Of a DNA stretch of 64,000 nucleotides, positions 26,761 to 46,791 are shown one piece after another (position 1 is the first letter of the stretch; each line of letters begins with the position of its first letter). The DNA is from Candidatus Poribacteria bacterium (GTDB lineage Bacteria > Poribacteria > WGA-4E > WGA-3G). The stretch lies in NCBI GenBank assembly GCA_965261435.1, contig CBDHDL010000021.1, positions 142,872 through 206,871 on the forward strand, in the 5' to 3' direction. The notes under the pieces were generated by a model. It was not told the DNA's origin. It saw only the letters and a program-made list of their open reading frames with translations, and did no database searches. The position numbers and the translations under genes are program-made.

Positions 26761-26762
26761 TC

Positions 26763-26960: not shown

Positions 26961-27056
26961 GTCGTGCTCCTTATTAGAATTACAGTTACGAAAACCTGTA
27001 TACCGATGTTATCTTACTTTGACAAGAGGGTTAAACATCTTTCAACAAGATTATTT

Positions 27057-28538
27057 TCAGTCATCACGAAGTTGGTTCACGAGTTCATCAACTGTACATG
27101 TACTAAGTAATTCACCGATTATTCTCTGTGTGCCGAAGTGAGGACGTTCCATCATAATTTTGTCAAAACCTGTAGGGCCGTTGAAAATAATAGAATTCCA
27201 ACTCACACTATGAATGTCATTTGGAAATTTACGTAGACAAGTACCTCTAAAATAGGCTCGTGTATCTAAAGGTGGATGCTGTATGGCATGGACAATTTCC
27301 TCATGAGATAATATACGTTCTACATGTCCATTTTTGAGCAGTCTTAGGTAAAGTCCTTTATCTGGACGCAAGTCATGATACTGTAGATCAAGCATTCGGA
27401 CGCGTGGGTCTGTCCATTCAAAACCGTGCCGTTCGATATACGCATCAATAAGTCTTTTCTTGATAATCCAATCTAAATATTTTCCTAAAGCCATCGGATC
27501 CGTTTGTAAATTCCCTAATACGAAATCCCATTTCTTCAAGAGATCATCTACAATAGGTGTTCTTTCTTCTCCGGATAAGTGTTTATGGGCGAGTTCAAGG
27601 TATTCACGTTGAATATTTATTGCTGTCAATTTGCGTCCATCTTTAAGTTCTAACTCATGTGTGCACTTTAAATCCCGCGAAACTGTTTTAATCGCTTTGA
27701 CTGGATCTTCTAAAGCAAATTTGTTACCGATGACACCTTTCTCAATCAATTGTAAGACAATTGCCGTGATTCCTACTTTCAAGTATATCGTAAATTCTGA
27801 CATGTTGGAATCTCCAACTATGACATGTAATCTCCGATAAAGTCTGGAATCCGCGTGGGGTTCATCTCGTGTATTTATCAATGGTCGTTCGACCATTGTG
27901 CTTAGACCGACTTCTTTCTCAAAGAAATCTGCACGTTGTGAAATCTGATAATCGGCATCGTCGGCTCCGTTTTCAGCACCGACCTTCCCACTGCCAGTTA
28001 TTATCTGTCGTGTTACTATAAAGGGTGTAAATCCATCAACAATATCCGTGAATTCCACCTTCCGCGACATCAAATAGTTTTCATGCGATCCGTAACTATG
28101 TCCTTTATAGTCTGTATTATTCTTATATATTATGATTTCTTGATTATCCAATAATAACTGTTCTGCTGCGAGTCTGCTAAGGTCTAAAATTAGCTCTCCT
28201 GCTTTTTCATATTTGACGAGATCGCGTGCATTTGAACATTCAGGCGTACAATATTCAGGATGTGCATGGTCAACGTAATATCGTCCGCCGTTTATTAATA
28301 TATCATTGATAACACTGTAGGTATCTTCCTCAACCACCGGTTTCTGACTAACATCAATGAAACCTCGTGCATCCATCAAAGGACTTTCTTGTGCATAATC
28401 CCACGATATACTGGGAATATTACGGCTTTTATATGCATTAACAACTAATGTTGATGCTGCAATTGGATCTTGTTCTCTTGCGTTTTTAACAGAAATACCA
28501 AATTCTGTTTCTGTTCCAATTATCGTTGGTGTTGACAT
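27057..28538 (-). CDS. dop: Pup deamidase/depupylase Dop
   Basis: N-terminal IIGTETEFGIS. 493 aa, longer than the PafA paralog, consistent with the Dop-loop insertion. Located between arc and pup. Confidence 0.8.
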   Translation of the reverse strand: MSTPTIIGTETEFGISVKNAREQDPIAASTLVVNAYKSRNIPSISWDYAQESPLMDARGFIDVSQKPVVEEDTYSVINDILINGGRYYVDHAHPEYCTPECSNARDLVKYEKAGELILDLSRLAAEQLLLDNQEIIIYKNNTDYKGHSYGSHENYLMSRKVEFTDIVDGFTPFIVTRQIITGSGKVGAENGADDADYQISQRADFFEKEVGLSTMVERPLINTRDEPHADSRLYRRLHVIVGDSNMSEFTIYLKVGITAIVLQLIEKGVIGNKFALEDPVKAIKTVSRDLKCTHELELKDGRKLTAINIQREYLELAHKHLSGEERTPIVDDLLKKWDFVLGNLQTDPMALGKYLDWIIKKRLIDAYIERHGFEWTDPRVRMLDLQYHDLRPDKGLYLRLLKNGHVERILSHEEIVHAIQHPPLDTRAYFRGTCLRKFPNDIHSVSWNSIIFNGPTGFDKIMMERPHFGTQRIIGELLSTCTVDELVNQLRDD

Positions 28539-28637
28539 ATTTCTTTGTGTCAGTCATTCAAATGTTTAGGCAAATGTTTAGGACAAAATTCCGTTGAAAA
28601 TCTAATCTAAAATACAATAGTATCATCAACTGATATT

Positions 28638-30434
28638 TTATAGGTATGATCCACCTTTGCTAACTCTAACTTCGGGTTTTCTGCGCGTTTCGGGTTCATT
28701 AATTAATGCTCGAATATTGACTATTTTTTCACCTTTTCTACCAGAAATCTTAGCCCAATCATCTGGGTTAGTTGTATTGGGAAGATCTTCATTTTCACGG
28801 TATTCTTCACGTATAGCAGTCTTTAGGTCATTTAAAGAGATACCTTTTTCCCTACCTTCAGAACTGATTAGGCGTTTAATTGCCATCTTCTTTGCCCGTG
28901 AAACTATGTTTCTAATCATCGCGCCACTAACAAAATCTTTGAAGAATAACGTTTCACGTTCGCCTCGTGTGTAGGTAACCTCAATAAATCGGTTATCATC
29001 TCTGGTTGCATACATTTCATCAGCAGCTTCAGAAATAAGGTGTTTGACAACATCTTCAGCATTACCGTCAAATTTTTCCCGTACTGCATCTGCAAGCGGT
29101 AGGTCAGGTGTAAGATAGATTCCAAATATATCTTTTGCGCCGTCAATGTTAGGACGATCAATCTTAATTTTAATGTCAAGCCTGCCGGGTCTTAATACAG
29201 CAGGGTCAAGAAGATCTTGCCTATTACTTGCTCCAATGACAATCACATCACGTAAGTTCTCAACGCCATCTATCTCAGCAAGGAATTGCGGCACTAAAGT
29301 TGACTCCATATCCGAGGATATTCCCATACCACGTGAACGAAATAACGAATCCATTTCATCAAAGAATATGACAACAGGAAATCCTTCTCTTGACTTATCC
29401 CGTGCTTTTTGAAATACTTCTCGAATTTTTCTTTCAGTTTCACCAACATACTTATTCAAAAGCTCAGGACCTTTAATGTTGATAAAATAGCCTCTAATGT
29501 CTTCCCTACCCGATTTTTGTCTGATGCGTTCTGCGAGACAATTTGCAACTGCCCTTGCGATCAGAGTCTTTCCACAACCTGGTGGGCCATAGAGCAATAC
29601 ACCTTTTGGGGGTGTGAGGTCAAATTCTTTATATTCTTCAGGGTATAGATAGGGCATTTCTATTGCGTCTCGAATCGCCTCAATCTGCGTGTCCAATCCA
29701 CCTATGTCAGCATAACTTATATCAGGTACTTCTTCGAGCAGTAAATCATCAAGTTCGCGCTTTGGAAGTTTCTCAAGAAGCATCCCGCTGCTATGATTCA
29801 ACAGAACGGTATCCCCTGTTTTTAGTGTTTCTTCTTTTAATGCGGATGAAACACGCACGACCTGTTCTTCATCGGTTCTCAGGCTTACAACAGCGCGTCC
29901 AGATTCAAGTACCTCCTTGATCTTTACCACATCTCCATGTTTTTCAGGAGGTTTAACTGCGACAACGTTCAGTCCACTATTAACGATTACTTCTTGCCCT
30001 ACATCAATCTGATCAGCTTTAATAGTTGGATCAAGATTAACTCTCCATTTCTTTCCACCGATGTCTACATCAATGGTATTATCATCATTAGTACCGAGAA
30101 AGATTCCGTAATTATTCGGAGGTGCACTGAGTTGTTTCACTTTCTCTTTTAATAGCTCAAGTTTCTCTCTTGCTTCTTGAAGTGTCCCGGTGAGTTTTCG
30201 ATTGCGTCTGTGTGCTTGCATTAATTCGCGTGTCATTTCATACAGGCGCGCATCAACATCTTCATCTGGTGAACTTCTGAGTTGTCTTCTTAGATCTGAG
30301 ACCTCGTTTTGAAGCATCTCAATTTGCCAATTTAGTTCTCGAACCATTTGAGGATAATCGATATTATCAGTTTCGATACCTTCAATATCGGAACTTTTCA
30401 ATAAGTCAGATGAAGTGTCTCTTTTAGTTGCCAT
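28638..30434 (-). CDS. arc: proteasome-associated AAA+ ATPase ARC/Mpa
   Basis: N-terminal coiled coil; Walker A GPPGCGKTLIARAVAN; Walker B VIFFDEMD; C-terminus ...GGSYL resembles the Mpa GQYL docking tail. Confidence 0.85.
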   Translation of the reverse strand: MATKRDTSSDLLKSSDIEGIETDNIDYPQMVRELNWQIEMLQNEVSDLRRQLRSSPDEDVDARLYEMTRELMQAHRRNRKLTGTLQEAREKLELLKEKVKQLSAPPNNYGIFLGTNDDNTIDVDIGGKKWRVNLDPTIKADQIDVGQEVIVNSGLNVVAVKPPEKHGDVVKIKEVLESGRAVVSLRTDEEQVVRVSSALKEETLKTGDTVLLNHSSGMLLEKLPKRELDDLLLEEVPDISYADIGGLDTQIEAIRDAIEMPYLYPEEYKEFDLTPPKGVLLYGPPGCGKTLIARAVANCLAERIRQKSGREDIRGYFINIKGPELLNKYVGETERKIREVFQKARDKSREGFPVVIFFDEMDSLFRSRGMGISSDMESTLVPQFLAEIDGVENLRDVIVIGASNRQDLLDPAVLRPGRLDIKIKIDRPNIDGAKDIFGIYLTPDLPLADAVREKFDGNAEDVVKHLISEAADEMYATRDDNRFIEVTYTRGERETLFFKDFVSGAMIRNIVSRAKKMAIKRLISSEGREKGISLNDLKTAIREEYRENEDLPNTTNPDDWAKISGRKGEKIVNIRALINEPETRRKPEVRVSKGGSYL

Positions 30435-30563: not shown

Positions 30564-31727
30564 TTAACTATTATTAGTATCTGATGTTGATGCATCAGTG
30601 TTTTCAAATTCCGTTTCTACTTCATCATCAACAACATCAACAGCAGGTATACTTCCTGCAGCGGATTCAGATTGCGCCATTGTACTCAGATTCTCACGTA
30701 TTTTCTTATCAAGTTCAGTTGCGATCTCAGGATTCTGTTCTAAATAGGTTTTCACATTATTGCGTCCTTGTCCAATCCGTTCATTGTTGTAAGAAAACCA
30801 TGAACCTCTTTTTTGAATGAATCCTGCTTCAACTGCGATATCTAAAAGGTTTCCTTCTATTGAGATACCTTTACCGAATGTTATATCAAACTCTGCTTCC
30901 CTGAATGGCGGTGCAACTTTATTCTTGACGACCTTGACAAGTACTCGATTTCCAAGAACATCTTGTCCTTCTTTTATCTGTGTAGCCCGTCGGATTTCCA
31001 ATCGCACAGAAGCATGAAACTTCAGCGCAAGTCCACCGGGTGTAGTATCTGGATTTCCAAACATGATTCCTATCTTCTGTCGGATTTGGTTTGTAAAAAT
31101 CACACAGGTTTTGGATTTGTTTGTTACGCCAGATAGTTTTCGTAGTGCTTTTGACATCAATCTTGGCAATAAACCGACATGTGCATCGCCCATTTCACCT
31201 TCCACTTCTGCTTGAGGTGTCAATGCAGCAACGGAGTCAATAATAACGACATCTATTGCCCCGCTTCGTATAAGGGTTTCTACAATCTCCAATGCTTGTT
31301 CACCGGCATCTGGCTGGGAAATTAATAGATTTTCCAGATTCACACCGATACTACGTGCATAGGTAGTGTCCAATGCGTGTTCAACATCTATAAATGCTGC
31401 GATGCCCCCCATTTTTTGTGCTTCAGCGACGACGTGCAGTGCTAATGTTGTTTTTCCTGTTCCTTCATGCCCAAAGACTTCAATGATTCTCCCACGAGGG
31501 ACGCCGCCGACACCTAACGCGAGGTCTAATGCAAGTGCACCGGTAGGAATAACTTCCACCGGAACAACTTCGTCGCCGGTCAGACGCATAATTGCCCCTT
31601 TACCATAAGCGCGTTCAACCTGAGATATGGCATCATCAACCGCCTTCTTTTTCTCTGCTGCGTTTTTCTGTTCTTCCGGACTAAGTTCATTGTCTAAACT
31701 GTTTTTGTCATCATTCGCCATTATCAA
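30564..31727 (-). CDS. recA: recombinase RecA
   Basis: [20 protein letters not shown] (Walker A). L1/L2 regions conserved. It has an about 20-aa N-terminal extension and an acidic C-terminal tail. Confidence 0.95.
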
Positions 31728-34940: not shown

Positions 34941-37900
34941 ATGGATTATTTTCTATTTAAGGAATTATTAATGTCTCATAGAAAATATGGAAGATGGTAT
35001 GTAACATTTTTACTTTTGTGTGTTTTTGTCCTCTATTCTATAAGTTATGCGGATGTGACTCCTGTTGCTGACCGCACGCCACAAGTGCGTGATGCGATTG
35101 TTGCTGCAGTACCGGGTGTGGATTCTGCAGCCGATGTGACTGCGGAGCATCTGTCAACGATGACGAGTCTTACCCTGCGTTTGTTAAAGATAACGTCGTT
35201 GGCATCAGGTGATTTTTCTGGGTTAACAGGTATGACTTCTCTGAACCTCTACGGGAACCAGCTCTCCAGTTTACCTGCTGGTATTTTTGAAGGGTTGACA
35301 TCTTTGACAACACTACGTTTAGGGAGAAACGCTGTGGATCCTCTCCCTTTGACTGTATCATTAGAAAAGGTTGCCGAAGGTGAGTTCAAGGCGGTTGTCC
35401 CTGCAGGAGCGACGTTTGATATTGTTTTACCGATCACTGTTGCAAATGGCAGTATCACGGGTGGTACGACAGCACTCACAATTTCTCAGGGTGGCACAGA
35501 GAGTAGCCTGTTTGAGGTAACACGCACCCCTGGTACAACAGGTGAAGTCACCGTTGATATTGGTACATTACCGAGTTTGCCTCGTAATCATTATGGTTAC
35601 GAACTTGTCAAATCCGATGCACTTCTCCTGACTATCATCGGTGGCATAAACACGGCACCTACTTTTGCTGAAGGCAATATCACTATACGTACCATTGCAG
35701 AAAATGTCTCGGTAGGCACGAACATCGGTGCGCCGATAACAGCCACGGATGTAGAGGATGACACACTGACTTGGACCCTCGGTGGCGTTGATGCCGATTC
35801 CTTTGAGATAAATAGTACAACAGGGCAGCTTAAGACCAAAGCACCGCTTGACTATGAAACCAAGCGTGTCTATTCGGTGTCCCTCACAGTTGCTGATGAA
35901 GAGCTATCCGATACGATAACGGTAATTATCAGCGTGATTGACGTAAGTGATACTGTTGTCGCTGCGGATGTTTTTCCTGTCGTTGACCGCACGCCACAAG
36001 TGCGTGATGCAATCGTGGCGGCGATCCCCACTGTGCGTGATGCAACCCAAGTAACCGCCACACACCTCGCAAGTATAACAAGTCTGAACCTGCGTAGCAA
36101 AGGTATTTCTGCACTGAAAATAGGTGATTTTTCTGGACTTGTCGCACTTACAAATCTCAATCTATTTGGGAATCAACTTTCCAGTCTACCCGTAGGCACT
36201 TTTGATGGTTTGGGGGCACTCACTACGCTCCGATTAGGTGGCAACGTTGTTGACCCACTCCCGTTGATCGTGTCTTTACAACAGGTCCGTGATAGCGAAT
36301 ATCGTGCGATAATACCTACTGGCGCGCCTTTCCCGATCCGCCTCCCGATTACCGTCACTGATAGTAGTATTAGCGGTGGGATAACATCTGTTGTGATCTC
36401 ACAAGGTAGGCGTCATAGTGCCCCATTTACCGTAGTCGGCACCTCCGCAAAAGTGTCTATCGGCATGTTGCCCGGAGTGCCGCGTAACCATTACGGGTAT
36501 GTGCTTGCACAATCCACCGTCAGCAGCCGCACCGAACAAGTGGCAACTGCGATTGCTGCTGCGATAGGTGTTAGCGATAGTCGTTCTGTGACCGAGATAG
36601 ACCTTGCTACGATAACAAGTCTCGATCTCTCAGGAACTTCTCTTACGACGCTCAAAACAGGCGATTTTGCGGATATGGTATCGTTGACAACACTCAACTT
36701 GTCAAACAATGCACTGACGTACCTACCGGCTGACATCTTTGATGACACACCGTCGCTGCGTTCCATTACTTTAGCCAATAACCAGCTTTCAAGTCTCCCT
36801 GTTGGATTGTTCACGGGGTTGTCGTTTCTGAGCACGGTTGACCTCAGTGGCAACGGCATCACAAGCTTATCAGATGGAACATTCAGTGAGTTATCTACGT
36901 TGACAACCCTCAATTTGTCCAACAACAAGATGTCTACGTTACCAGCTGGCATTTTTGAGGGGTTGACATCGTTGAATCAACTCTCATTAAGTGGGAATAC
37001 AGTGGATCCGTTGCAGATAGGTGTATCACTCCAGAAGGTAGGAATAAATCAGTTTAAAGCAGTCGCTCTCACAGGTGCGCCGTTTAATATCGTGTTGCCA
37101 CTCGAACGGATAAATGGCACGGTTCGCGGCGTGGCAACAACCATTCAGATACCGAAAGGCAGTGTGGAAAGCCAACCCTTGACAATGATCCGGATGCCCA
37201 ACACTATTGCAGCAGTTGAAGTAGATATAGTCAATGTGCCGCAGCTCCCCTCAAATCATAACGGGTACGCGCTTGTGAAATCTATGACTCGGCGGTTAGA
37301 AGTACTCCCGATCTTGAACTCGCCACCCGTGTTCACTGAAGGCACAAGCACGACTCGCAATATCGCAGAGAATACCGCAGCAGGCACAAACATCGGTGAT
37401 CCTGTTTCAGCGACAGATGTTGATGAAGACACGTTAACCTACCGGATCGGTGGTACAGATGCAGCCGCTTTCGCTATTGATACATCCTCCGGACAACTGC
37501 GAACAAGTGCAATCTTAGACTATGAAAACAAGAACTCTTATTCTATCACCGTCTCGGTTTCTGATGGCAATGGTGGAAGTGATAGCATTACCGTCACTAT
37601 CACTGTGACGGATGTTAGTGAAACTAAGATAACACCTGCGATTAGTGACCGCACACCACAGGTACGTGATGCCATCGTTGCTGCAGCCAGTGTTTCCTCC
37701 GCTGCTGATGTGAACGCAGCGCACCTCACAGCGATCAGAACTCTGGACCTTTTAGACCACTCCATCAGTTCCTTGAAAGCAGGTGATTTCAGTGGACTTA
37801 CCTCACTGATATGGATCGATCTGTCTTCCAATTCCATAAGTGATATATCTGCCCTTGAGGACTTGACTTCACTTGAAACGCTCCGTCTGTATGACAATTC

Positions 37901-39038
37901 CATAAGTGATATATCTGTCCTTTCAGGGTTGACTTCATTGACAACACTCAATCTGTCTGGTAATTCCATAGGTGATATATCTGCACTTTCAGGATTGACT
38001 TCACTGACAACGCTCAATCTGTCTATCAATTCCATAAGTGATATATCTGCACTTTCAGGGTTGACTTCACTGACAAGGCTCGGTCTCAGGGGTAATTCCA
38101 TTTCAGATTACGGACCGCTGCGCAGGCTACTCGCAGCAATTGAGGCAGCTGGTAATAGTTTATCACTTGATACTACTATCCCGCTTGTCGGAAACAACAA
38201 CGATGCCCCCATATTCACAGATGGCACCAGCACGACACGTTCTATCGTTGAAAATACTGGATCTGGTGTCAATATCGGTCCTGCGGTATCAGCAACCGAT
38301 GCGGATAACGATACACTCACATATACGCTCATTGGTACGGATGCGTCATCATTTAGCATTGTCAGTTCATCAGGACAGCTCCAAACAAAAGCATCCCTTG
38401 ACTATGAAAACAAAAACTCTTATTCTGTCACCATCTCTGTCTCTGATAGCAACGGTGGGACAGATAGCATTACCGTCACTATCAATGTTACGGATGTGAG
38501 TGAAACGACAATAACACTTGTCAGTGAACGAACATCACAGGTACGCGATGCTATTGTCGCCGCACTCCGTGGTGTTTCCTCCGCGGCGGATGTGACCGCA
38601 GCACACCTCACAACAATTACATCTTTGGACCTTTCAGACCAATCCATCAGTTCATTGAAACCAGGTGATTTCAGTGGACTTTCTTCACTGACAACGCTCC
38701 GTCTGTATGACAATTCCATAAGTGATATATCTGCACTTTCAGGGTTGACTTCACTGACAACGCTCAATCTGTCTGGCAATTCCATAAGTGACATATCTGC
38801 ACTTTCAGGGTTGACTTCACTGACAAGGCTCAATCTGTCTATCAATTCCATAAATGATATATCTGTCCTTTCAGGGTTGACTTCACTGACAAGGCTCAAT
38901 CTGTCTATCAATTCCATAAGTGATATATCTGCACTTTCAGGGTTGACTTCACTGACAAGGCTCGGTCTCAGGGGTAATTCCATTTCAGATTACGGACCGC
39001 TGCGCAGGCTACTCGCAGCACTTGAGGCAAGCTGGTAA
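34941..39038 (+). CDS. giant surface protein, segment 1 (signal peptide, Ig/cadherin-like repeats, LRR modules); open frame ends at a +1 frameshift
   Basis: Signal-like N-terminus. Repeated module RTPQVRDAIVAA...AADVTAAHL followed by LRRs (NSISDISALSGLTSLTTLNL). Cadherin-like repeats (LDYE.K..YS.TV.VSDG...D.ITVTI.VTDV). It stops at 39036 where ...LEAAGNSLSLDTTIP of every other module reads gcaAgctggtaa, with an extra A at about 39029. Confidence 0.7.
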   Translation: MDYFLFKELLMSHRKYGRWYVTFLLLCVFVLYSISYADVTPVADRTPQVRDAIVAAVPGVDSAADVTAEHLSTMTSLTLRLLKITSLASGDFSGLTGMTSLNLYGNQLSSLPAGIFEGLTSLTTLRLGRNAVDPLPLTVSLEKVAEGEFKAVVPAGATFDIVLPITVANGSITGGTTALTISQGGTESSLFEVTRTPGTTGEVTVDIGTLPSLPRNHYGYELVKSDALLLTIIGGINTAPTFAEGNITIRTIAENVSVGTNIGAPITATDVEDDTLTWTLGGVDADSFEINSTTGQLKTKAPLDYETKRVYSVSLTVADEELSDTITVIISVIDVSDTVVAADVFPVVDRTPQVRDAIVAAIPTVRDATQVTATHLASITSLNLRSKGISALKIGDFSGLVALTNLNLFGNQLSSLPVGTFDGLGALTTLRLGGNVVDPLPLIVSLQQVRDSEYRAIIPTGAPFPIRLPITVTDSSISGGITSVVISQGRRHSAPFTVVGTSAKVSIGMLPGVPRNHYGYVLAQSTVSSRTEQVATAIAAAIGVSDSRSVTEIDLATITSLDLSGTSLTTLKTGDFADMVSLTTLNLSNNALTYLPADIFDDTPSLRSITLANNQLSSLPVGLFTGLSFLSTVDLSGNGITSLSDGTFSELSTLTTLNLSNNKMSTLPAGIFEGLTSLNQLSLSGNTVDPLQIGVSLQKVGINQFKAVALTGAPFNIVLPLERINGTVRGVATTIQIPKGSVESQPLTMIRMPNTIAAVEVDIVNVPQLPSNHNGYALVKSMTRRLEVLPILNSPPVFTEGTSTTRNIAENTAAGTNIGDPVSATDVDEDTLTYRIGGTDAAAFAIDTSSGQLRTSAILDYENKNSYSITVSVSDGNGGSDSITVTITVTDVSETKITPAISDRTPQVRDAIVAAASVSSAADVNAAHLTAIRTLDLLDHSISSLKAGDFSGLTSLIWIDLSSNSISDISALEDLTSLETLRLYDNSISDISVLSGLTSLTTLNLSGNSIGDISALSGLTSLTTLNLSINSISDISALSGLTSLTRLGLRGNSISDYGPLRRLLAAIEAAGNSLSLDTTIPLVGNNNDAPIFTDGTSTTRSIVENTGSGVNIGPAVSATDADNDTLTYTLIGTDASSFSIVSSSGQLQTKASLDYENKNSYSVTISVSDSNGGTDSITVTINVTDVSETTITLVSERTSQVRDAIVAALRGVSSAADVTAAHLTTITSLDLSDQSISSLKPGDFSGLSSLTTLRLYDNSISDISALSGLTSLTTLNLSGNSISDISALSGLTSLTRLNLSINSINDISVLSGLTSLTRLNLSINSISDISALSGLTSLTRLGLRGNSISDYGPLRRLLAALEASW

Positions 39039-40986
39039 TAGTTTATCACTTGATACTACTATCCCACCTGTCCGCAGCAACAACAATGCCCCCGTATTCA
39101 CAGATGGCACGAGCACAACACGCTCTGTCGCGGAAAACAGTGGTTCTGGTGTCAATATCGGTTCTGTGGTATCAGCAACCGATGCGGATAACGATACACT
39201 TACATATACGCTCATTGGCACAGATGCGTCATCATTTAGCATTATCAGTTCATCAGGACAGCTCCAAACAAAAGCATCCCTTGACTATGAAAACAAAAAC
39301 TCTTATACAGTCACAGTGTCAGTTTCTGATGGCAACGGTGGGACAGATAGCATTACCGTCACTATCAATGTTACGGATGTTAGTGAAACGACGATAACAC
39401 TCGTCAGTGAAAGAACATCACAGGTGCGCGATGCTATTGTCGCCGCACTCCATGGTGTTTCCTCCGCGGCGGATGTGACCGCAGCACACCTCACAGCGAT
39501 TACATCTTTGGACCTTTCAGACCAATCCATCAGTTCATTGAAACCAGGTGATTTCAGTGAACTTACCTCACTGACAACGCTCAATCTGTCTTACAATTCC
39601 ATAGGTGATATATCTGCACTTGAGGACTTGACTTCACTGACAACGCTCAATCTGGCTGGCAATTCCATAAGTGATATATCTATCCTTTCAGGGTTAACTT
39701 CACTGACAAGGCTTAATCTGTCTATCAATTCCATAAGTGATATATCTGCCCTTGAGAACTTGACTTCACTGACAAGGCTCAATCTATCTGACAATTCCAT
39801 AAGTGATATATCTGCCCTTGAGAACTTGACTTCACTGACAAGGCTCGGTCTCAGGGGTAATTCCATTTCAGATTACGGACCGTTGCGCAGGCTCCTCGCA
39901 GCACTTGAGGCAGCTGGTAATAGTTTATCACTTGATACTACTATCCCGTCTGTCCGTAGCAACAACAATGCACCCGTATTCACAGATGGCACGAGTACAA
40001 CGCGCCACATCCCAGAAAACAGTGGTTCTGGTGTTAACATCGGTTCTGCGGTCTCAGCAACCGATGCGGATAACGATACACTCACATATACGCTCATTGG
40101 CACAGATGCGTCATCATTTAGCGTTGTCAGTTCATCAGGACAGCTCCAAACAAAAGCATCCCTTGACTATGAAAACAAAAACTCATATACAGTCACAGTG
40201 TCAGTTTCTGATGGAAAGAGTGGAACCGATAGCATTACCGTCACTATCAATGTTACGGATGTTAGTGATACGCCGCTAACATCTGACAGTGAGCGAACAC
40301 CGCAAGTGCGTGATGCCATCGTTGCTGCAGCCGGTGTAGCATCTGCGACTGATGTGACCACAACACACCTTGCAACGATTACATCTTTAGACCTTTCAAA
40401 CCTATCCATCGGTTCCTTGAAAGCAGGTGATTTCAGTGGACTTACCTCACTGACATGGCTCGATTTGTCTGACAATTCCATAAGTGATATATCTGCACTT
40501 GAGGACTTGACTTCACTTGAAACGCTCCATCTGTATGACAATTCCATAAGTGATATATCTGCACTCTCAGGGTTGACTTCACTGACAACGCTCAATCTGG
40601 CTGACAATTCCATAAGTGATATATCTGCGCTTGAGGACTTGACTTCACTGACAAAGCTCGGTCTCAGGGGTAATTCCATTTCAGATTACGGACCGTTGCG
40701 CAGGCTCCTCGCAGCACTTGAGGCAACTGGTAATAGTTTATCACTTGATACTACTATCCCGCCTGTCCGTAGCAACAACAATGCACCCGTATTCACAGAT
40801 GGCACGAGCACAACGCGTTTTGTCGTGGAGAACACTGGTTCTGGTGTTAACATCGGTTCTGCGGTATCAGCAACCGATGCGGATAACGATACACTTGCAT
40901 ATACGCTCATTGGCACGGATGCGTCCTCGTTTAGCATTGTCGGTTCATCCGGGCAGCTTGCTAACAAAAGCAACTTTGGATTATGA
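39022..40986 (+). CDS. same giant gene, segment 2 (cadherin-like plus LRR modules); ends at a second +1 frameshift
   Basis: Continues the about 880-bp module periodicity. The first residues of the ORF call are out of frame. It ends at 40986 where gggcagctTgctaac (extra T at about 40959) replaces the gggcagctgctaac of the following units. Confidence 0.65.
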   Translation: MRQAGNSLSLDTTIPPVRSNNNAPVFTDGTSTTRSVAENSGSGVNIGSVVSATDADNDTLTYTLIGTDASSFSIISSSGQLQTKASLDYENKNSYTVTVSVSDGNGGTDSITVTINVTDVSETTITLVSERTSQVRDAIVAALHGVSSAADVTAAHLTAITSLDLSDQSISSLKPGDFSELTSLTTLNLSYNSIGDISALEDLTSLTTLNLAGNSISDISILSGLTSLTRLNLSINSISDISALENLTSLTRLNLSDNSISDISALENLTSLTRLGLRGNSISDYGPLRRLLAALEAAGNSLSLDTTIPSVRSNNNAPVFTDGTSTTRHIPENSGSGVNIGSAVSATDADNDTLTYTLIGTDASSFSVVSSSGQLQTKASLDYENKNSYTVTVSVSDGKSGTDSITVTINVTDVSDTPLTSDSERTPQVRDAIVAAAGVASATDVTTTHLATITSLDLSNLSIGSLKAGDFSGLTSLTWLDLSDNSISDISALEDLTSLETLHLYDNSISDISALSGLTSLTTLNLADNSISDISALEDLTSLTKLGLRGNSISDYGPLRRLLAALEATGNSLSLDTTIPPVRSNNNAPVFTDGTSTTRFVVENTGSGVNIGSAVSATDADNDTLAYTLIGTDASSFSIVGSSGQLANKSNFGL

Positions 40987-43357
40987 GAAAAAAGTCCAGT
41001 ATTCTGTGACGGTGAAAGTTTCTGATGGAAAACTCACGGACACAATCACGGTTACTATCAATGTGACAGATGTGCAGGAGAACCGAGCCCCGCTATTTAG
41101 TGCTGACACAGCAACACGGTCTGTCGCAGAAAACACTGCTGCTGGACAAAACATCGGGGCTGCAATAACAGCAACAGACTCGGATAACGACAACTTGACC
41201 TATACTCTTGAGGGTACGGATGCGTCCTCGTTTAGCATTGTCAGTTCATCCGGGCAGCTGCTAACAAAAGCAACTTTGGATTATGAGAAAAAAGTCCAGT
41301 ATTCTGTGACGGTGAAAGTTTCTGATGGAAAACTCACGGACACAATCACGGTTACTATCAATGTGACAGATGTGCAGGAGAACCGAGCCCCGCTATTTAG
41401 TGCTGACACAGCAACACGGTCTGTCGCAGAAAACACTGCTGCTGGACAAAACATCGGGGCTGCAATAACAGCAACAGACTCGGATAACGACAACTTGACC
41501 TATACTCTTGAGGGTACGGATGCGTCCTCGTTTAGCATTGTCAGTTCATCCGGGCAGCTGCTAACAAAAGCAACTTTGAATTTTGAAAGCAAAAGCAGCT
41601 ATGAAGTGACGGTGTCTGTTTCTGATGGGAATGGCGGAAGTGATAGTATTACTGTCACTATCAATGTGGCGGATGTGAATGAGAACCAACCTGTATTTAG
41701 TGATGGCGCAAGCACGACGCGGTCTATCGCAGAAAACACTGTCGCAGGTCAAAACATCGGAGACCCAGTATCCGCAACGGATGCGGATACTGGTGATACG
41801 TTAACCTATAGTCTTGGCGGTACGGATGCGTCATCGTTTGATATTATTAGCACATCAGGACAACTTCAAACCAAAGTTGCTTTGGATTATGAGGGGTCGA
41901 AAAATTCCTATACCGTCACCGTGTCTGTCTCTGATGGTAAAGGTGGGACTGATAAGATTACCGTGTCCATCATCGTCACAGATGTAACCGAAACTACTAC
42001 GGCACCTCAGATACAGATTACACCTGTCGGGAAACGGACATCACAGGTGCGTGATGCGATTGTGGCTGACATCTCTGGTGTTTCCTCCGCGGAAGATGTG
42101 ACCGAAGCACACCTCACAACGATCACATCTTTGGACCTTTCAAACCAATCCATCAGTTCCTTGAAAGCAGGTGATTTCAGTGGACTGACTTCGCTGACAC
42201 ACCTCCGTCTGTATAACAATTCCATAAGTGATATATCGGCTCTTTCGGACTTGACTTCACTGACATGGCTCTTTCTGTCTAACAATTCCATAAGTGATAT
42301 ATCGGCTCTTTCAGGGTTGACTAAATTGACAAGGCTCACTCTGTATGACAATTCCGTAAGCGATATATCGGCTCTTTTGGACTTGACTTCACTGACATGG
42401 CTCCATCTGTATGACAATTCTATAAGTGATATATCGGCTCTTTCAGCCTTGACTGAATTGACATGGCTTGAACTGGGGGAGAATTCCATAAGTGATATAT
42501 CGGCTCTTTCAGCCTTGACAGACCTGAGATCGCTCAATCTGTATAACAATACCATAAGTGATATATCGGCTCTCTCGGGCATGACTAAAATGACAGACCT
42601 CTATCTGTCTAAAAATTCCATAAGTGATATATCGGCTCTCTCGGGCATGACTAAAATGACAACGCTCTATCTGTCTAACAATTCCATAAGTGATATATCG
42701 GACCTTGAAGACTTGACTAAATTGACAACGCTCTATCTGTCTAACAATTCCATAAGTGATATATCGGCTCTCTCGGGCATGACTAAAATGACATGGCTCT
42801 TTCTGTCTAACAATTCCATAAGTGATATATCGGACCTTGAAGACTTGACTAAATTGACAACGCTCTATCTGTCTAACAATTCCATAAGTGATATATCTGC
42901 CCTTGAAGACTTGACTAAATTGACATGGCTTCAACTGGATGGCAATTCCATTTCAGATTACGGACCGTTGGGCAGGCTCAAGGCAGCAATTGAAGCAGCC
43001 GGTAATAGTTTATCACTTGACATTACTATCCCAGCAGATGCTCCCTCACATGCCGCTGTTCCTAAGTCAACATCACTTTTACCCAACTTCCCCAACCCGT
43101 TCAACCCGGAAACGTGGATTCCGTATCAGTTAGCCAAACCCTCAGCGGTGACAATAACGATATTTGATGTCCGGGGACGTGTTGTGCGGACGTTGATTTT
43201 AGGCACTCAACCTTCGGGTATCTATAGAAGTCAAAGCAAGGCAGCCCATTGGGATGGTAAAAACGCGTTCGGGGAAAAGGTCGCAGGAGGAATGTATTTC
43301 TATAGGCTTACGGCAGGTGATTTTTCTGCCACACGCAAAATGTTAATTTTGAAGTGA
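40957..43357 (+). CDS. same giant gene, segment 3: cadherin-like repeats, LRR array and T9SS-type C-terminal sorting domain
   Basis: In-frame continuation LLTKATLDYEKKVQYSVTVKVSDG. The C-terminus NFPNPFNPETWIPYQL...VTITIFDVRGRVVRTL...GIYRSQSKAAHWDGKNAFGEKVAGGMYFYRLTAGDFSATRKMLILK matches the T9SS-type CTD. The listed ORF start at 40718 is an out-of-frame artefact. Confidence 0.7.
40981..41580. repeat. perfect 2 x 300-bp tandem duplication (one cadherin-like repeat unit) inside the giant gene
   Basis: 40981..41280 and 41281..41580 appear identical. The antisense ORFs 40981..41193 and 41281..41493 have identical 70-aa translations. Confidence 0.85.
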
Positions 43358-43411
43358 CTTTTGACAAAATGGGCAAATTTGAAATAGAATCAAACAATTA
43401 AAGGAGTTTAT

Positions 43412-45760
43412 GTGAAAACTTTAGGCAATAAATCAAAGAAAATTGGGCAAACCTTGATGATTCTTAGTTTTGCTTTTCTAATGTTAACAACAGTTCCTGT
43501 TATAGCGAATGAATTTGAAATCGGAACACAGTTCGGGATTTCCCGTTTTATTCCTGACAGCGAGGATTCTTCAACGACAAGTATTACCTTCACTCGGTTA
43601 CCAGCAGGAACACTTGTTGATATTGGGACATCTCCAACATCACTGTACGCGACGTTCTTTCTGGGCAAAAAATATGCGGTTGGGTCAGAATTCAGTTTTG
43701 GAGAAATGTCAGTGTCAGATGAGTCTTGGGCCGATGAGGATAACGCAAGCTTAATGACACTTCACCTTGGTGGTCGCGCATCATACTTTTTGTTTAGTCA
43801 TTCAGTATCTTCACCTTACGTATTCGGACAGATGGCTCGCACTATATTTATTGGTGATGCTAATTTCTTTTTTGAAGGTGACAACAACTCATCTCTTGCG
43901 AGTTTGGGGGGCGGTTTAGGGTATCAGTGGCGTATAGGCCCTGCTTTTGTGCTGCGGACAGAAGCACAGTATCAACGCGTGTTTGTTGTAGATGAAGATC
44001 AAAATGCAAATGAGTTCTCATTTATTATTGGCATCGGCACACGGTTCGGAGGCAATAACAACCCAGCAGAGGCAAAACTTGATCTCAATGACACAGAATT
44101 CACGCCTGTCAGTGCAAGAACACCACAGGTACGTGACGCGATTGTTGCTGCGGTGCCGGGTGTGAATAATGCTGATGCTGTGACCGCAGCACACCTCGCG
44201 GAGATTACATCTTTAGACCTTGCAGACCCATCCATCAGTTCCCTAAAAGCAGGTGATTTCAATGGACTTACCTCACTGACAGAACTCTTTCTGACTTCCA
44301 TAAGTGATATATCTGTACTTGAAGATTTGTCTTCACTGACAGAACTCAATTTGTGGAATAATTCCATAAGTGATATATCCGCACTTGAAAACCTAACAGC
44401 ACTGACAGATCTTTTTTTGTCTTCCAATTCCATAAGTGACATATCTGCGCTTGAGAACCTCACAGGACTGACAACGCTCGATCTGTCTTCCAGTACCGTA
44501 AGTGATATATCCGCCATTGAAAACCTAACAGCACTGGAATGGCTCAAGCTGGGTAACAGTTCCATCAGCGATATATCTGCGCTTCAAAACTTGACAGCAC
44601 TGAAAGAACTCTATCTGTCTTCCAGTACCATAAGTAATATATCCACACTTGAAAACCTAACAGCATTGGAATGGCTCGATTTGTCTTCCAATTCCATAAG
44701 TGATATATCTGCCCTTGAAAACATGACAGCACTAACATTTCTCGATCTGTCTTCCAATTCCATAAGTGATATATCCGCACTTGAAAACTTGACAGCACTG
44801 ACAATGCTCAATCTTTATGGTAACAACATCAAGGATATATCTGCGTTTGAGGACATGACTTCACTAACAGATCTCTATCTGAGTCACAATTCCATAAGTG
44901 ATATATCCGCACTTGAAAACTTGACAGCACTGAGAACACTCAATCTGGCTAAGAATTCCGTAAGTGATATATCTGCGCTTGAAAATCTCACAGCACTGAC
45001 AGAGCTCACTCTACCTGAAAGTTCCATAAATGATATATCTGCGCTTGAAAATCTCACAGCACTGACAACGCTCTATCTGGGTAGCAACGATATCAATGAT
45101 ATATCTACGCTTGAAAACTTGACAGCACTGACAGAACTCCATCTGTTTTCCAATTCCATAAGTGATATATCTGCGCTTGAAAACATGACCTTACTGAGAG
45201 AGCTGAATCTGGGGGGTAATTCCATAAGTGATATACCGTCTCTTGAAAACTTGACAGCACTGACAACGCTCTATCTGTGGGATAATTCCATAAGCGATAT
45301 ATCTGTGCTTGAAAACCTGACTTCACTGAGAACACTGAATATATATCGCAACGACATCAAGGATATATCTGGGCTTGAAAACCTGACCTTATTGAAAGAT
45401 CTCTATCTGAGTCACAATTCCATAAGTGATATATCCGCGCTTGAAAACTTGACAGTGCTAACAAGGTTGACTTTGCATCACAATGCTATCAGCGATGTAT
45501 CTGCGCTTGAAAACCTGAATGCACTGAAAATGCTCAAGCTGAGTCACAATTCCATCAAGGATATATCTGCACTTGAAAACCTGATTGCACTGACAGAGCT
45601 CAATCTGGATAATAATTCTATAAGTGATATATCCGCACTTGAAAATTTGACAGCATTGAAAAAGCTTGAACTGCGGAACAATCCGATTTCAGATTACGGA
45701 CCGCTTCGTAGACTCAAAGCAAAAAATCCAGGTATGCAGACTGATATTACTATTCCGTAG
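43412..45760 (+). CDS. paralogous LRR protein with N-terminal signal peptide and outer-membrane beta-barrel-like domain; C-terminal sorting domain lost
   Basis: GTG start 5 nt after AAGGAG. Signal MILSFAFLMLTTVPVIA. About 200-aa region of alternating hydrophobic strands ending ...FSFIIGIGTRFGG (OMP beta-barrel-like). Then the RTPQVRDAIVAAVPGV cap and about 25 LRRs (NSISDISALENLTAL). It ends ...TDITIP-TAG. Confidence 0.7.
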   Translation: MKTLGNKSKKIGQTLMILSFAFLMLTTVPVIANEFEIGTQFGISRFIPDSEDSSTTSITFTRLPAGTLVDIGTSPTSLYATFFLGKKYAVGSEFSFGEMSVSDESWADEDNASLMTLHLGGRASYFLFSHSVSSPYVFGQMARTIFIGDANFFFEGDNNSSLASLGGGLGYQWRIGPAFVLRTEAQYQRVFVVDEDQNANEFSFIIGIGTRFGGNNNPAEAKLDLNDTEFTPVSARTPQVRDAIVAAVPGVNNADAVTAAHLAEITSLDLADPSISSLKAGDFNGLTSLTELFLTSISDISVLEDLSSLTELNLWNNSISDISALENLTALTDLFLSSNSISDISALENLTGLTTLDLSSSTVSDISAIENLTALEWLKLGNSSISDISALQNLTALKELYLSSSTISNISTLENLTALEWLDLSSNSISDISALENMTALTFLDLSSNSISDISALENLTALTMLNLYGNNIKDISAFEDMTSLTDLYLSHNSISDISALENLTALRTLNLAKNSVSDISALENLTALTELTLPESSINDISALENLTALTTLYLGSNDINDISTLENLTALTELHLFSNSISDISALENMTLLRELNLGGNSISDIPSLENLTALTTLYLWDNSISDISVLENLTSLRTLNIYRNDIKDISGLENLTLLKDLYLSHNSISDISALENLTVLTRLTLHHNAISDVSALENLNALKMLKLSHNSIKDISALENLIALTELNLDNNSISDISALENLTALKKLELRNNPISDYGPLRRLKAKNPGMQTDITIP

Positions 45761-45829
45761 CAGTTTCTACTTCTGTACACGGAAGGTAGGGACTTTACTG
45801 CAACACGGAAGATGTTGATACTGAAGTAA
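45761..45829 (+). pseudogene. vestigial T9SS CTD tail, in frame after the TAG stop of the LRR paralog
   Basis: In-frame translation after the stop: QFLLLYTEGRDFTATRKMLILK-stop, versus FYRLTAGDFSATRKMLILK at the end of 40957..43357. Confidence 0.6.
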
Positions 45830-46138
45830 ACGCTACCAAACGGAAGGTAAAAACCATATATGAAAAAACTAACATTTGTCTTGCACATCTACACGAATTG
45901 GCGTCCCTTCAAAAGTATTTCTCTCAGCGCAGTGTGATTATCATCGCATTGGCGTGGTTGACAGGTGCAGGTCTGGTTGCATGAACTACCATTTTCTGTA
46001 ATGTTCAGTGAACAAGTTGCCGATGAACACGGTGCGGAAACGGATGACATCTTGTTATCAGTGTTCCGTGAACCGACATAATACCATTTCTATAAATTAT
46101 TGTGTCATTAGACTGTTATTATTGTAGTCATTTTTCAG

Positions 46139-46202
46139 GCCACAAACTGAAAGTTTGTGGTACAAAAAAGAGACATTTTCAAGAAGAAATGGTATAAGAT
46201 TG
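46139..46202. repeat. dispersed about 65-bp element with perfect hairpin CCACAAACT-gaa-AGTTTGTGG followed by TACAAAAAAGAGACATTTTCAAGAAGAAATGGTAT
   Basis: Second copy at 63404..63470 (about 85% identity, with compensatory hairpin). The 3' half alone recurs at 16585..16625 (aacattttcaattagaaatggtatta). This copy is about 75 bp upstream of apt. Confidence 0.6.
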
Positions 46203-46275
46203 GAGGAGGGATACCTTGTCCATTTCCAAGTATTTCTAAACGTTACAACAAAATACCGAGAGGTTTTACAATTTT

Positions 46276-46791
46276 ATGAACGATCTAACGAAGTTTATCC
46301 GAACGATACCTGATTTTCCGAAACAGGGTATTGCATTTAAAGACATTACACCACTTTTAGGGAATGCCTCTGTTTTCAACGCTGTAATTGAAGTCTACGC
46401 GAATCATTACAAAGATGCAGGAGTTGACGTAATTGTAGGTCCTGAAGCCAGAGGGTTCATTTTTGCATCTGCACTTGCATATCGGATGGGAACAGGCTTT
46501 GCTCCGGTTCGTAAAAAAGGAAAGTTACCTTATGACACATATCAAGTGACCTATGAACTGGAGTATGGCAAGGATACCCTCACTATTCATCAAGATGCTT
46601 TTCCAAAGGGGAGTCGCGTGCTGTTATGTGATGATCTCTTGGCTACTGGTGGCACACTTGCGGCAACGGTTGAACTTATTGAAAAACTGGACGGAGACAT
46701 TGTCGGTATTGCCCTCTTAATAGAACTAACGGAACTCAACGGACGAGAAAAGATCGGGAATTTACCAATCTTTTCTTTCTTTGAATTGTAG
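46276..46791 (+). CDS. apt: adenine phosphoribosyltransferase
   Basis: FPKQGIAFKDITPLL and the PRPP-binding motif VLLCDDLLATGGTLAA. 171 aa. Confidence 0.85.
   Translation: MNDLTKFIRTIPDFPKQGIAFKDITPLLGNASVFNAVIEVYANHYKDAGVDVIVGPEARGFIFASALAYRMGTGFAPVRKKGKLPYDTYQVTYELEYGKDTLTIHQDAFPKGSRVLLCDDLLATGGTLAATVELIEKLDGDIVGIALLIELTELNGREKIGNLPIFSFFEL

Follow-up and report, generated by a model that had tools for sequence, protein, structure and literature searches.

A barrel–LRR chimera in Candidatus Poribacteria: probable product of two deletions in a surface-protein gene cluster that appears to be decaying

Introduction

The window analysed here (the whole 64,000-nucleotide stretch of Candidatus Poribacteria DNA) contains an ORF, 43412..45760 on the + strand, that encodes 782 aa and consists, from N- to C-terminus, of a signal peptide, an 8-stranded outer-membrane barrel and 23 leucine-rich repeat (LRR) units, followed by a TAG stop codon. 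The locus raises the question of whether an LRR protein has changed the manner of its surface anchoring. An earlier note, made from the sequence alone, had read it in this way, as the exchange of a T9SS C-terminal sorting domain (CTD) for an N-terminal barrel, with a leaky stop codon as the alternative. The evidence assembled below favors a different answer, namely that the chimera is probably the product of two deletions in a decaying surface-protein cluster and not a new form of surface anchoring.

Architecture of the chimeric gene

The features of the locus are as follows.

34941..43357, + strand: giant LRR/cadherin cargo gene with an intact T9SS-type CTD at 43058-43357 (Pfam, TIGR04183, translations)
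43361..43390, + strand: sigma-70-like promoter match TTGACA-18-TAGAAT (11 of 12 positions match the consensus)
43401..43414, + strand: ribosome-binding site (RBS) AAGGAG and GTG start (read from the sequence; homologue comparison)
43412..43507, + strand: putative signal peptide, residues 1-32, MKTLGNKSKKIGQTLMILSFAFLMLTTVPVIA, followed by NE (sequence features, homologue alignment, AF2)
43508..44050, + strand: 8-stranded outer-membrane beta-barrel, residues 33-213 (PF13505, homologues, AF2, Foldseek)
44051..44095, + strand: fusion junction, residues 214-228, GNNNPAEAKLDLNDT (DNA alignment to loci L009, L014 and L025)
44096..45757, + strand: LRR region with N-cap (TPVSARTPQVRDAIVAAVPGV...), 22 repeats and a C-cap ending ...NPISDYGPLRRLKAKNPGMQTDITIP (Pfam, TRF, homologue N-caps)
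45758..45760, + strand: TAG stop, on the 3' deletion junction, with CTD-homologous DNA from 45759
45759..45829, + strand: remnant of a T9SS-type CTD, consisting of its final ~24 codons down to the TAA stop (nhmmer)

As read from the sequence, the GTG start codon (43412-43414) is preceded at a distance of 5 nt by AAGGAG (43401-43406), and homologues have AAAGGAGTTT, a short spacer and ATGAAAAC in common with the chimera and start, with MKTL, at the same place. The promoter-like match sits within the 54-bp spacer preceding the gene; it is a match to consensus only, in a region where such sites are, in total, no more numerous than in shuffled sequence. Residues 1-32 resemble a signal peptide (K-rich, then a hydrophobic stretch, then VIA followed by NE) and align with the N-termini of stand-alone barrel homologues, and residues 5-30 form a helix in the AF2 model. 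Because the promoter-like site, RBS and signal peptide of a barrel gene all remain, a product is probably made from the chimeric gene. Look-up of the exact 782-aa sequence returned no record, and an Rfam scan of 43200-46400 gave no match.

The earlier proposal of an N-terminal outer-membrane barrel is well founded. The AF2 model of this domain has 8 long strands (pLDDT 75.5, pTM 0.69), the last of which finishes in Phe (...IGIGTRF, residue 212), and its best Foldseek matches are Ail, OprG, OmpA, OmpW, OprF-N, OmpX and NspA (E 1e-6 to 1e-4); model and matches alike describe a closed, antiparallel 8-stranded barrel, placed after the putative signal peptide. The autotransporter barrels Hbp and NalP rank 40th and 47th among the fold matches, with E of ~3e-3 to 5e-3. 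By profile, residues ~33-213 match Pfam OMP_b-brl (PF13505) over positions 2-175 of 175, scoring 25.2 bits for the domain alone and 21.3 for the whole protein against a gathering cut-off of 28.7. A precomputed PF13505 match is present in many of the ~150 barrel homologues, and the only other Pfam match to the domain is a weak one to OprF.

The LRR region comprises one unit of 21 aa, one of 20 aa and 20 of 22 aa, plus a 37-aa C-cap, and the corresponding DNA has a period of 66 bp (TRF: 20.8 copies, 72% matches, 44296-45666). The chimera had been credited with the same LRR cap and ~25 LRRs as its neighbor; both N-cap and C-cap types are indeed common to the two, but the count for the chimera is 23, the neighbor has only ~13 LRRs, and the array is not shared. 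Compared with class 1 internalins (NF033189), the protein scores 413 bits against a cut-off of 1600, and only the 22-residue LRR region matches.

Signs of decay within the gene were sought in both parts. The barrel deviates from its family at 5 of 72 conserved columns (family mean 3.7, sd 3.6), which lies within the family range and gives no clear signal either way; likewise, substitutions in the Asn ladder of the LRRs (4/20 vs 8/56 in relatives) are in no clear excess and signal decay in neither direction. The LRR reading frame stays open over 1.66 kb. Measurable decay is thus seen in neither part, and a strong promoter-like site and RBS are present, points that speak for a possible function of the fusion.

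Loss of the sorting domain

The TAG is followed by 22 in-frame codons and then TAA (45827-45829), a stretch that had been described as the fossil of a CTD. An nhmmer profile built from the DNA of 54 Poribacteria CTD 3' ends matches window positions 45759-45828 at model positions 229-299 of 300 (E 8.6e-13), far beyond chance, and the homology is true. The alignment requires one 1-nt gap, that is, an internal frameshift: the frame of the gene is retained only in the last 12 codons of the relic (DFTATRKMLILK, then the stop), and the 5' half lies in the +1 frame as SSFYFCTRKVG (compare SGVYFYTLTAG). The fossil therefore stands as a homologue, but of its 22 in-frame codons only the last 12 are read in the CTD frame. 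As the relic starts at the A of the TAG, the stop codon lies on the deletion junction. A reading of IP-stop-QF as a mutated CTD motif, IPYQL with its TAT changed to TAG, was considered and dropped: the profile puts the relic start at model position 229, and the IP-stop-QF/IPYQL match covers 13 of 14 nt, an 8-nt extension of this kind being expected by chance ~0.1 times per CTD.

A complete Ig-like sorting domain (~70-100 aa) at the C-terminus is absent from the gene at 43412..45760, which has no TIGR04183 or PF18962 match. Homologues with the same C-cap (P0260, P0300) run on into a ~20-aa linker and a ~90-aa CTD; the search with the LRR C-terminal part returned distant matches only (<=372 aa) and served to show this continuation from C-cap to linker and CTD. 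Together, the relic and these homologues support the view that the gene formerly had a T9SS-type CTD and lost it by deletion, as had been suggested, and they make the earlier figure of ~85 deleted codons reasonable. The deletion would have been out of frame and would have removed ~85–95 codons (at least ~85) of linker and CTD, sparing only the last ~24 CTD codons, with the TAG arising at the joint.

The alternative of a leaky TAG, through which read-through would append the 22-residue tail and restore a minimal T9SS signal, can be weighed against the same data. A C after TAG makes for comparatively weak termination, and motif E (KMLILK) is kept in the tail. In P. gingivalis, the smallest part of the CTD that is needed is its last 22 residues, which carry motifs D and E (PMC3120885). 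Nevertheless, given the internal frameshift, read-through would restore merely 12 CTD residues, the motif-D strand (GVYFY) being in another frame; the translated read-through tail has no TIGR04183 match; and the N-terminal barrel would in any case continue to hold the protein. Nor is TAG reassigned, since it ends 12 of the 35 long ORFs in the window. Functional read-through is therefore exceedingly improbable.

Origin of the fusion

In Poribacteria, the barrel family normally consists of stand-alone 'porin family' proteins of ~215 aa. The ~150 protein homologues span 178-404 aa, mostly 205-235 aa, with a best query coverage of <=84%, and the nearest is only 67-70% identical; Poribacteria barrel ORFs at 38 genomic loci all stop 0-15 codons past GTRFG. 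These genomic relatives were recovered with an alignment of the barrel family, a scan with a single barrel protein having given none. No LRR fusion occurs among the ~150 homologues and 38 loci, and no second barrel–LRR protein was found in 5.8 billion proteins, the 38 loci and the JGI metagenomes; the junction peptide NNPAEAKLDLNDTEFTPV, searched in the latter as a degenerate DNA pattern, gave no match.

The gene neighborhoods indicate how the parts may have met. A same-strand CTD end lies <=300 bp upstream of 16 of 39 barrel starts, where ~1.7% would be expected, and the window repeats this order of CTD gene then barrel with a gap of 54 bp. Three relatives (L009, L014 and L025) have, ~450 bp 3' of the barrel, an LRR gene that is separate and carries a signal peptide; it begins MKTLTVNQKIAASIV...AQDNAPELTPVSDRTQQV, and its N-cap is 60-64% identical to that of the chimera. 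In DNA alignment, the 45-nt junction of the chimera corresponds to ~510 bp in these loci, a stretch that runs from the end of the barrel gene with its stop codon through the intergenic spacer to the signal peptide of the gene that follows. Because 45 nt replace ~510 bp, the fusion is explained by one in-frame deletion. No locus truly orthologous to the chimera was found, so the ancestral layout is drawn from paralogous or positionally similar loci; neighborhoods anchored on APRT (L042-L044) are not syntenic with the window, though homologues of the downstream APRT are 91-94% identical.

Two further searches concerned the spacers themselves. Covariation was sought in the spacer hairpin of relatives, and no compensatory changes were seen. 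A conserved post-CTD spacer element in 45830-46275 was rejected, since a profile of nine spacers matched, by nhmmer, only the RBS and start of the chimera (E 0.047).

From these comparisons, we infer a starting array of a CTD cargo gene, a small stand-alone barrel gene and an LRR cargo gene that had a CTD and a signal peptide of its own. A first deletion of ~465 bp, in frame, would have lost the last codons and stop of the barrel gene, the spacer and the signal peptide of the LRR gene, welding the barrel onto the LRR N-cap; the second would be the one that removed the linker and most of the CTD. On this account, the chimera exemplifies how one in-frame deletion can weld neighboring genes into a new architecture, and how a secretion signal decays and leaves a datable relic.

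The non-random linkage also bears on a functional interpretation, in which the barrel family docks CTD cargo and a covalent link has replaced the CTD–barrel interaction, the location of the LRR part being unchanged (a Rosetta-stone fusion). Its appeal lies in the linkage of barrel to CTD-cargo genes, in the intactness of both barrel and LRR parts, and in the biology of the phylum: Poribacteria carry many TIGR04183-type CTDs, on repeat proteins, but their single-cell genomes yielded no Por structural genes (Kamke 2014, PMC3909097). PorP/SprF-like barrels encoded beside type B CTD cargo, moreover, anchor that cargo (PMC9143113). Yet the tight, conserved linkage is with the upstream cargo, whereas the fusion is with the downstream gene; no second fusion exists among the homologues and loci examined; and the barrel matches neither PorP/SprF, PorT nor any other T9SS model in NCBIfam. 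Such a fusion is accordingly unlikely. The broader proposition, that the small barrels are the missing outer-membrane docking or anchoring partner of Poribacteria CTD proteins and that the chimera is a putative Rosetta-stone fusion in which the CTD became dispensable, is decidedly doubtful; were it true, the chimeric protein would have a function, and the pairs of barrel and cargo genes would amount to a new module for handling CTDs.

The surrounding gene cluster

The gene directly upstream is itself damaged. Insertions of 1 nt at two places, one close to 39029/39030 and the other to 40960, split the giant cargo gene into ORFs 34941-39038, 39022-40986 and 40718-43357, and its translations carry on past the ORF ends in shifted frames. 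Its Pfam domains are LRR_4/LRR_8, Cadherin, FlgD_ig and Por_Secre_tail, and the CTD that the earlier note had assigned to the neighboring ORF is confirmed as intact (TIGR04183, 42.5 bits vs a cut-off of 23). The two frameshifts suggest that the whole surface-protein gene cluster is decaying. Other long genes of the window (MetH, PPDK, RecA, Pup ligases and others) are intact, and no T9SS machinery (SprA/Sov, PorK/L/M/N, PorU, PorV) was found among the window ORFs scanned.

A concentration of lesions in one place invites the suspicion that the fusion, CTD deletion and two frameshifts all stem from mis-assembly or mis-polishing of a repetitive MAG region. Tandem repeats of 66 bp and 300 bp abound here, all four lesions fall within these 11 kb with the remaining window clean, and an independent copy of the junction was not found. 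However, both deletion junctions lie in unique sequence (barrel 3' end/LRR N-cap and C-cap/CTD end), neither frameshift is in a homopolymer, and the many synonymous differences between the relic and the neighbor's CTD show that the one did not arise as a collapsed copy of the other. That the lesions are artefacts of assembly or sequencing is on these grounds improbable.

Returning to the two-deletion account, the most likely status of the LRR tail, given the two frameshifts in the adjacent giant gene, is that of a non-adaptive passenger in an eroding cluster of cargo genes. The barrel part may still perform its normal job, and a functional role for the fusion as a whole is conceivable.

Topology of the product

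If the product is made, it would be exported by Sec and its 8-stranded barrel inserted by BAM. Connections between successive strands in the AF2 model are 28, 3, 6, 7, 13, 3 and 5 residues, the odd-numbered ones long and the even-numbered ones short. In solved barrels of the Ail/OmpX/OmpW/OmpA type, both termini are periplasmic. The C-terminus of the barrel is accordingly predicted to face the periplasm, and because an 8-stranded barrel ends there, the LRR domain is predicted not to be surface-displayed; instead, a solenoid of ~560 aa would hang from the periplasmic C-terminus of the barrel in an OmpA-like layout. Accumulation of a CTD-less cargo protein in that compartment has a precedent in RgpB, which builds up in the periplasm when its CTD is missing (review PMC5445135).

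This predicted topology bears directly on the reading with which the locus was introduced, in which an LRR adhesin has switched from CTD/T9SS attachment to surface display via its own N-terminal barrel. The architecture is real, the intact ORF is accompanied by a promoter-like site and RBS, the CTD has demonstrably been lost, and no degradation of barrel or LRR part is visible, all of which speaks for the switch. N-terminal-barrel display systems (inverse autotransporters), however, employ a barrel of 12 strands through which a linker is threaded; the present barrel is 8-stranded and poreless, and has no Pfam match to the inverse-autotransporter family. None of the homologues examined shares the architecture, and gene adjacency plus one in-frame deletion, with a one-in-three chance of keeping the frame, explains the fusion fully. 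The barrel is, in short, a normally stand-alone gene at its usual place after a CTD-cargo gene rather than one acquired as an anchor, and its predicted periplasmic C-terminus, lone occurrence and seemingly decaying cluster speak against the switch as well, leaving it very unlikely. For annotation, the lesson is that such an ORF is not to be read as a new type of adhesin.

Comparison with known systems

The barrel is closest in design to Ail/OmpX, OmpW/OprG and the N-domains of OmpA/OprF, with which it shares 8 antiparallel strands, long external loops, short periplasmic turns, a final strand that terminates in Phe, and size; its identity to solved small barrels is nonetheless only 12-18%, and a 570-aa C-terminal extension is exclusive to the window copy. 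The two-domain layout of OmpA/OprF is alike in its barrel-first order and, as predicted, in the position of the second domain after the periplasmic end of strand 8. In OmpA/OprF, however, that domain is the peptidoglycan-binding OmpA_C within a conserved architecture, whereas in the chimera it is an internalin-like LRR solenoid derived from secreted cargo, and the architecture would be a one-off deletion product. Inverse autotransporters (intimin/invasin, type Ve) similarly combine an N-terminal barrel with a C-terminal, repeat-rich, adhesin-like passenger; with 12 strands and a linker through the pore, they form a class outside which the poreless chimera falls.

The ancestor of the LRR part resembled T9SS type A LRR cargo such as P. 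gingivalis InlJ, T. forsythia BspA and the 'eukaryote-like', TIGR04183-bearing LRR proteins of Poribacteria. Judged by homology, it comprised a signal peptide, LRRs and a TIGR04183-type CTD, like the neighbor and the proteins P0249, P0260 and P0300. The chimera differs in having neither the LRR gene's own signal peptide nor any CTD beyond the frame-broken relic of ~24 codons.

Lastly, the PorP/SprF-like genes of Bacteroidota offer a parallel in gene order, the outer-membrane barrel gene lying directly 3' of a CTD-cargo gene. There, the barrel binds, as well as anchors, the neighboring type B CTD cargo (PMC9143113). The window barrel differs in its 8 strands and ~190 mature residues and in the type A-like CTD adjacent to it; no NCBIfam family at all, PorP/SprF and PorT included, matches the barrel domain at E <= 0.1, nor does Pfam give a PorP/SprF match. 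The wider value of the comparison resides in the finding that, in Poribacteria, small 8-stranded barrel genes come directly after those of 'eukaryote-like' surface proteins with a CTD at a frequency far above chance. If these barrels take part in the export or anchoring of CTD proteins, the linkage is a concrete candidate for that role in Poribacteria (cf. Kamke 2014), and it may be a more interesting lead than the chimera itself.

Layout of the chimeric gene

The chimeric ORF (43412..45760, plus strand; 782 codons) opens with a GTG start codon 5 nt downstream of AAGGAG (43401-43406), with a sigma-70-like TTGACA-18-TAGAAT site ahead of it at 43361-43390. Beyond its TAG, 22 more in-frame codons (QFLLLYTEGRDFTATRKMLILK) extend to a TAA at 45827-45829.

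Parts of the chimeric ORF, in order
Residues 1-32: signal-peptide-like N-terminus
Residues 33-213: beta-rich domain, ending ...IGIGTRF
Next 15 residues: joint between the beta-rich domain and the LRR N-cap
After the joint: LRR N-cap, TPVSARTPQVRDAIVAAVPGV...
Between N-cap and C-cap: 22 LRRs (20 with a length of 22 residues)
Last part before the stop: C-cap, ending ...RRLKAKNPGMQTDITIP
45758-45760, plus strand: TAG stop

The barrel domain

The N-terminal domain, proposed in the earlier note to be an outer-membrane barrel, is borne out as such. Chimera residues 19-212 match the whole Pfam OMP_b-brl profile at 25.2 bits, below the threshold of 28.7 bits, and membership in PF13505 appears borderline at the sequence level. 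Residues 1-283, searched against 5.8 billion proteins, recovered about 150 homologues, nearly all of 205-235 aa and up to 70% identical, many with a precomputed PF13505 match; those with a source name are 'porin family protein' entries of Candidatus Poribacteria. The AlphaFold2 model (alignment of 48 homologues; pLDDT 75.5, pTM 0.69) comprises eight long strands (34-48, 77-84, 88-103, 110-126, 134-147, 161-175, 179-192, and 198-213) with connections of 28, 3, 6, 7, 13, 3, and 5 residues, and Foldseek searches of the PDB returned the classic 8-stranded barrels Ail, OprG, OmpA, OmpW, OprF-N, OmpX, and NspA. Because of this model and these matches, the barrel call is considered right, and by its fold the domain belongs with the small 8-stranded outer-membrane barrels. 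In such barrels the odd-numbered loops are as a rule long and the even-numbered turns short, and both termini of OmpA, OmpX, and Ail are periplasmic.

Loss of the CTD

Window 45759-45828 matches a DNA profile built from the 3' ends of 54 Poribacteria CTDs (E 8.6e-13), so the relic is real; the match covers model positions 229-299 of 300. The claimed loss of the CTD holds. The proposed 22-codon fossil is thus a true CTD relic, but only its last 12 codons share the frame of the chimera. Its protein-level ending, DFTATRKMLILK and stop, equals the family consensus ...GVYFYTLTAGDF[ST]ATRKMLI[RL]K and stop, while the profile alignment requires a 1-nt gap, and the 5' half in the +1 frame reads SSFYFCTRKVG, the counterpart of SGVYFYTLTAG. 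An alternative pairwise alignment with the upstream neighbour, which has two gaps (4 nt and 3 nt), breaks the frame too. In the homologous proteins P0260 and P0300, the same unusual type of C-cap (RRLKxxNPxxxxDIxI) is followed by a linker of ~20 residues and a CTD of ~90 residues; about 85-95 codons have therefore been lost, in agreement with the ~85 estimated earlier. Many synonymous sites distinguish the relic from the end of the neighbour's CTD; it is therefore what remains of the chimera's own former CTD and was not copied recently from the neighbour.

Since the CTD-homologous DNA starts at the A of TAG, the simplest account of the stop is that joining the two sides of an out-of-frame deletion created the TAG, with no need for a separate nonsense mutation. 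A leaky TAG, read through into the downstream codons, is a weak alternative: TAG ends 12 of the 35 long ORFs in the window and is ordinary there, TIGR04183 does not recognise the read-through tail, and motif D is out of frame in the relic (the P. gingivalis CTD needs at minimum its last 22 residues, which carry motifs D and E; PMC3120885).

The 446 bp between the relic and the APRT gene (window 45830-46275) hold no convincing gene, only a 26-codon ORF starting at 45871 (MKKLTFVL...), with no Rfam match and no terminator-like site; they may contain further debris of the deleted region.

Origin of the fusion

DNA alignment to the relatives' loci L009, L014, and L025 shows clear barrel-side homology up to window 44050 (...GGCACACGGTTCGGA) and clear LRR-side homology from 44096 on (ACGCCTGTCAGT...), the junction spanning 45 nt in the window versus about 510 bp in relatives. 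The stretch absent from the window comprises the barrel's short tail and stop, a spacer, and the signal peptide of the LRR gene. In L009, L014, and L025, and in L024 as a more distant case, the separate gene ~450 bp past the barrel begins MKTLTVNQKIAASIV...NVQAQDNAPELTPVSDRTQQVQDRIVALVPGV..., a signal peptide followed directly by the chimera-type LRR N-cap. One deletion, of about 465 bp and by a one-in-three chance in frame, would suffice to fuse the barrel to the LRR part.

The barrel-LRR combination is without known counterpart in the protein database, the 38 loci, or a metagenome scan for the junction peptide. None of the ~150 barrel homologues carries LRRs, coverage of the 283-residue query is at most 84% in all of them, and every homologue of greater length (353-404 aa) is a tandem double barrel. 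Latescibacterota, too, have such tandem pairs, 353 aa long (L036:9905-11056, one of several loci with barrel oddities); others are L040:10001-10159, a barrel fragment (residues 159-213 only) after a CTD, and L041:10001-13204 (Latescibacterota), where a barrel frame without a stop continues into ~900 aa of methyltransferase-like sequence.

Signal-peptide starts are near-alike (MKTLxVNxK...) in barrel genes and downstream LRR cargo genes (window 43412-43460; L009 ~10960, L014 ~10980, L025 ~1520), and the RBS context AAAGGAGTTT is the same in both, which suggests a lineage-specific leader or common 5' sequence.

Function, decay, or artefact

The three ORFs upstream of the chimera (34941-39038, 39022-40986, and 40718-43357) form one giant LRR/cadherin/CTD gene (about 2,800 codons) that is disrupted by 1-nt insertions near 39029/39030 and near 40960, neither of the two in a homopolymer; the breaks reflect either pseudogene status or faulty polishing of repeat-rich sequence. 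Its CTD is bona fide T9SS type A-like (TIGR04183, 42.5 bits against a cut-off of 23; Pfam FlgD_ig and Por_Secre_tail). Two frameshifts and two deletions thus fall within 11 kb of cargo genes, while MetH, PPDK, RecA, RtcB, the Pup ligases, and other long genes elsewhere in the window are intact.

Overall, the evidence on decay is mixed. The lesion cluster and unique architecture are signs of it; against it stand the barrel's conserved columns (5 of 72 highly conserved ones deviate; family mean 3.7, sd 3.6), an LRR frame open over 1.66 kb, and four Asn-to-Ser ladder substitutions in the LRRs, not clearly commoner than in relatives. We read the event as recent or tolerated and the LRR tail as a passenger, while selection may still act on the barrel part. 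The chimera may also be an assembly artefact, but a mis-join driven by repeats is unlikely, as the sequence at both deletion junctions is unique.

Other genes of the window include a Pup-proteasome-type set (23863-30434).

Genes of the Pup-proteasome-type set and the adjoining gene
23863-25224, minus strand: Pup-ligase family gene
27057-28538, minus strand: second Pup-ligase family gene
28638-30434, minus strand: proteasomal AAA ATPase with OB domains
30564-31727: recA, adjoining the set

Homologues of the APRT gene (46276-46791) in other Poribacteria assemblies are 91-94% identical, but their neighbourhoods (L042:14273-20395, L043:11307-13913, and L044:10428-13004) are completely rearranged relative to the window; as a large LRR gene nevertheless lies no more than a few kb from APRT in each, LRR genes seem to mark variable regions.

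Predicted topology

The expression signals and the signal peptide of the barrel gene are intact, so the product is probably made; it would undergo Sec export and then BAM insertion of the barrel. A few residues follow the terminal Phe in stand-alone members too, which makes an internal beta-signal ordinary in this family. Strand 8 ends on the periplasmic side and barrels of eight strands lack a pore, so on the modelled fold the LRR solenoid would remain periplasmic in a layout resembling the order of barrel and C-terminal domain in OmpA. Inverse autotransporters, which display a C-terminal passenger through an N-terminal barrel, have a 12-stranded one, and no similarity to them was found in the chimera's barrel. 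The T9SS cargo RgpB accumulates in the periplasm when it lacks its CTD (PMC5445135). The earlier interpretation is thus partly supported: the architecture and CTD loss stand, whereas a switch in surface anchoring does not, as the predicted topology places the LRR part in the periplasm.

Barrel genes beside CTD cargo

A scan with the family alignment (one genome per GTDB species) found 39 barrel loci (L003-L041), almost all in Poribacteria MAGs, of which one duplicate was removed to leave 38 for counts. By tblastn, the barrel ORF stops 0-15 codons past GTRFG in every Poribacteria locus. Of 39 barrel starts, 16 have the end of a CTD-coding gene on the same strand within the 300 bp upstream, versus ~1.7% expected from CTD density within the same loci. 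Distances are about 95-250 bp, with a TIGR04183-type CTD upstream; the window keeps this order (CTD stop 43357, barrel start 43412).

CTD ends with a barrel downstream
Window 43058-43412
L003, L007, L009-L012, L015, L016, L018, L020, L023-L025, L028, L034, L035, L040

The ~100-bp spacer of relatives contains a conserved hairpin, GGAAGGGTG...CACCCTTC (8 pairs and no compensatory changes by RNAalifold), and, immediately before the RBS on its 5' side, a palindrome, GATTGCAcaTTGCAATC; the window's 54-bp spacer has neither.

Spacers with hairpin and palindrome
L003:9905-10003, L009:9907-10003
L010, L011, L016, L017, L020, L034, L035

Comparison with known systems

The LRR part descends from TIGR04183-type cargo, a kind already noted among Poribacteria 'eukaryote-like' proteins (Kamke 2014, PMC3909097), and Por structural genes were reported missing from the phylum (PMC3909097). 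The most fitting description of the chimera is a one-off variant that deletions made from known parts, rather than a new anchoring system; the reading as a Rosetta-stone fusion, which would require that Poribacteria barrels interact with CTDs, is improbable. The strong linkage of barrel and CTD cargo genes, which may reflect a functional pairing in Poribacteria, is a by-product more interesting than the chimera itself, and can be likened to that in Bacteroidota, where PorP/SprF-like barrels are encoded next to type B CTD cargo and anchor it (PMC9143113).
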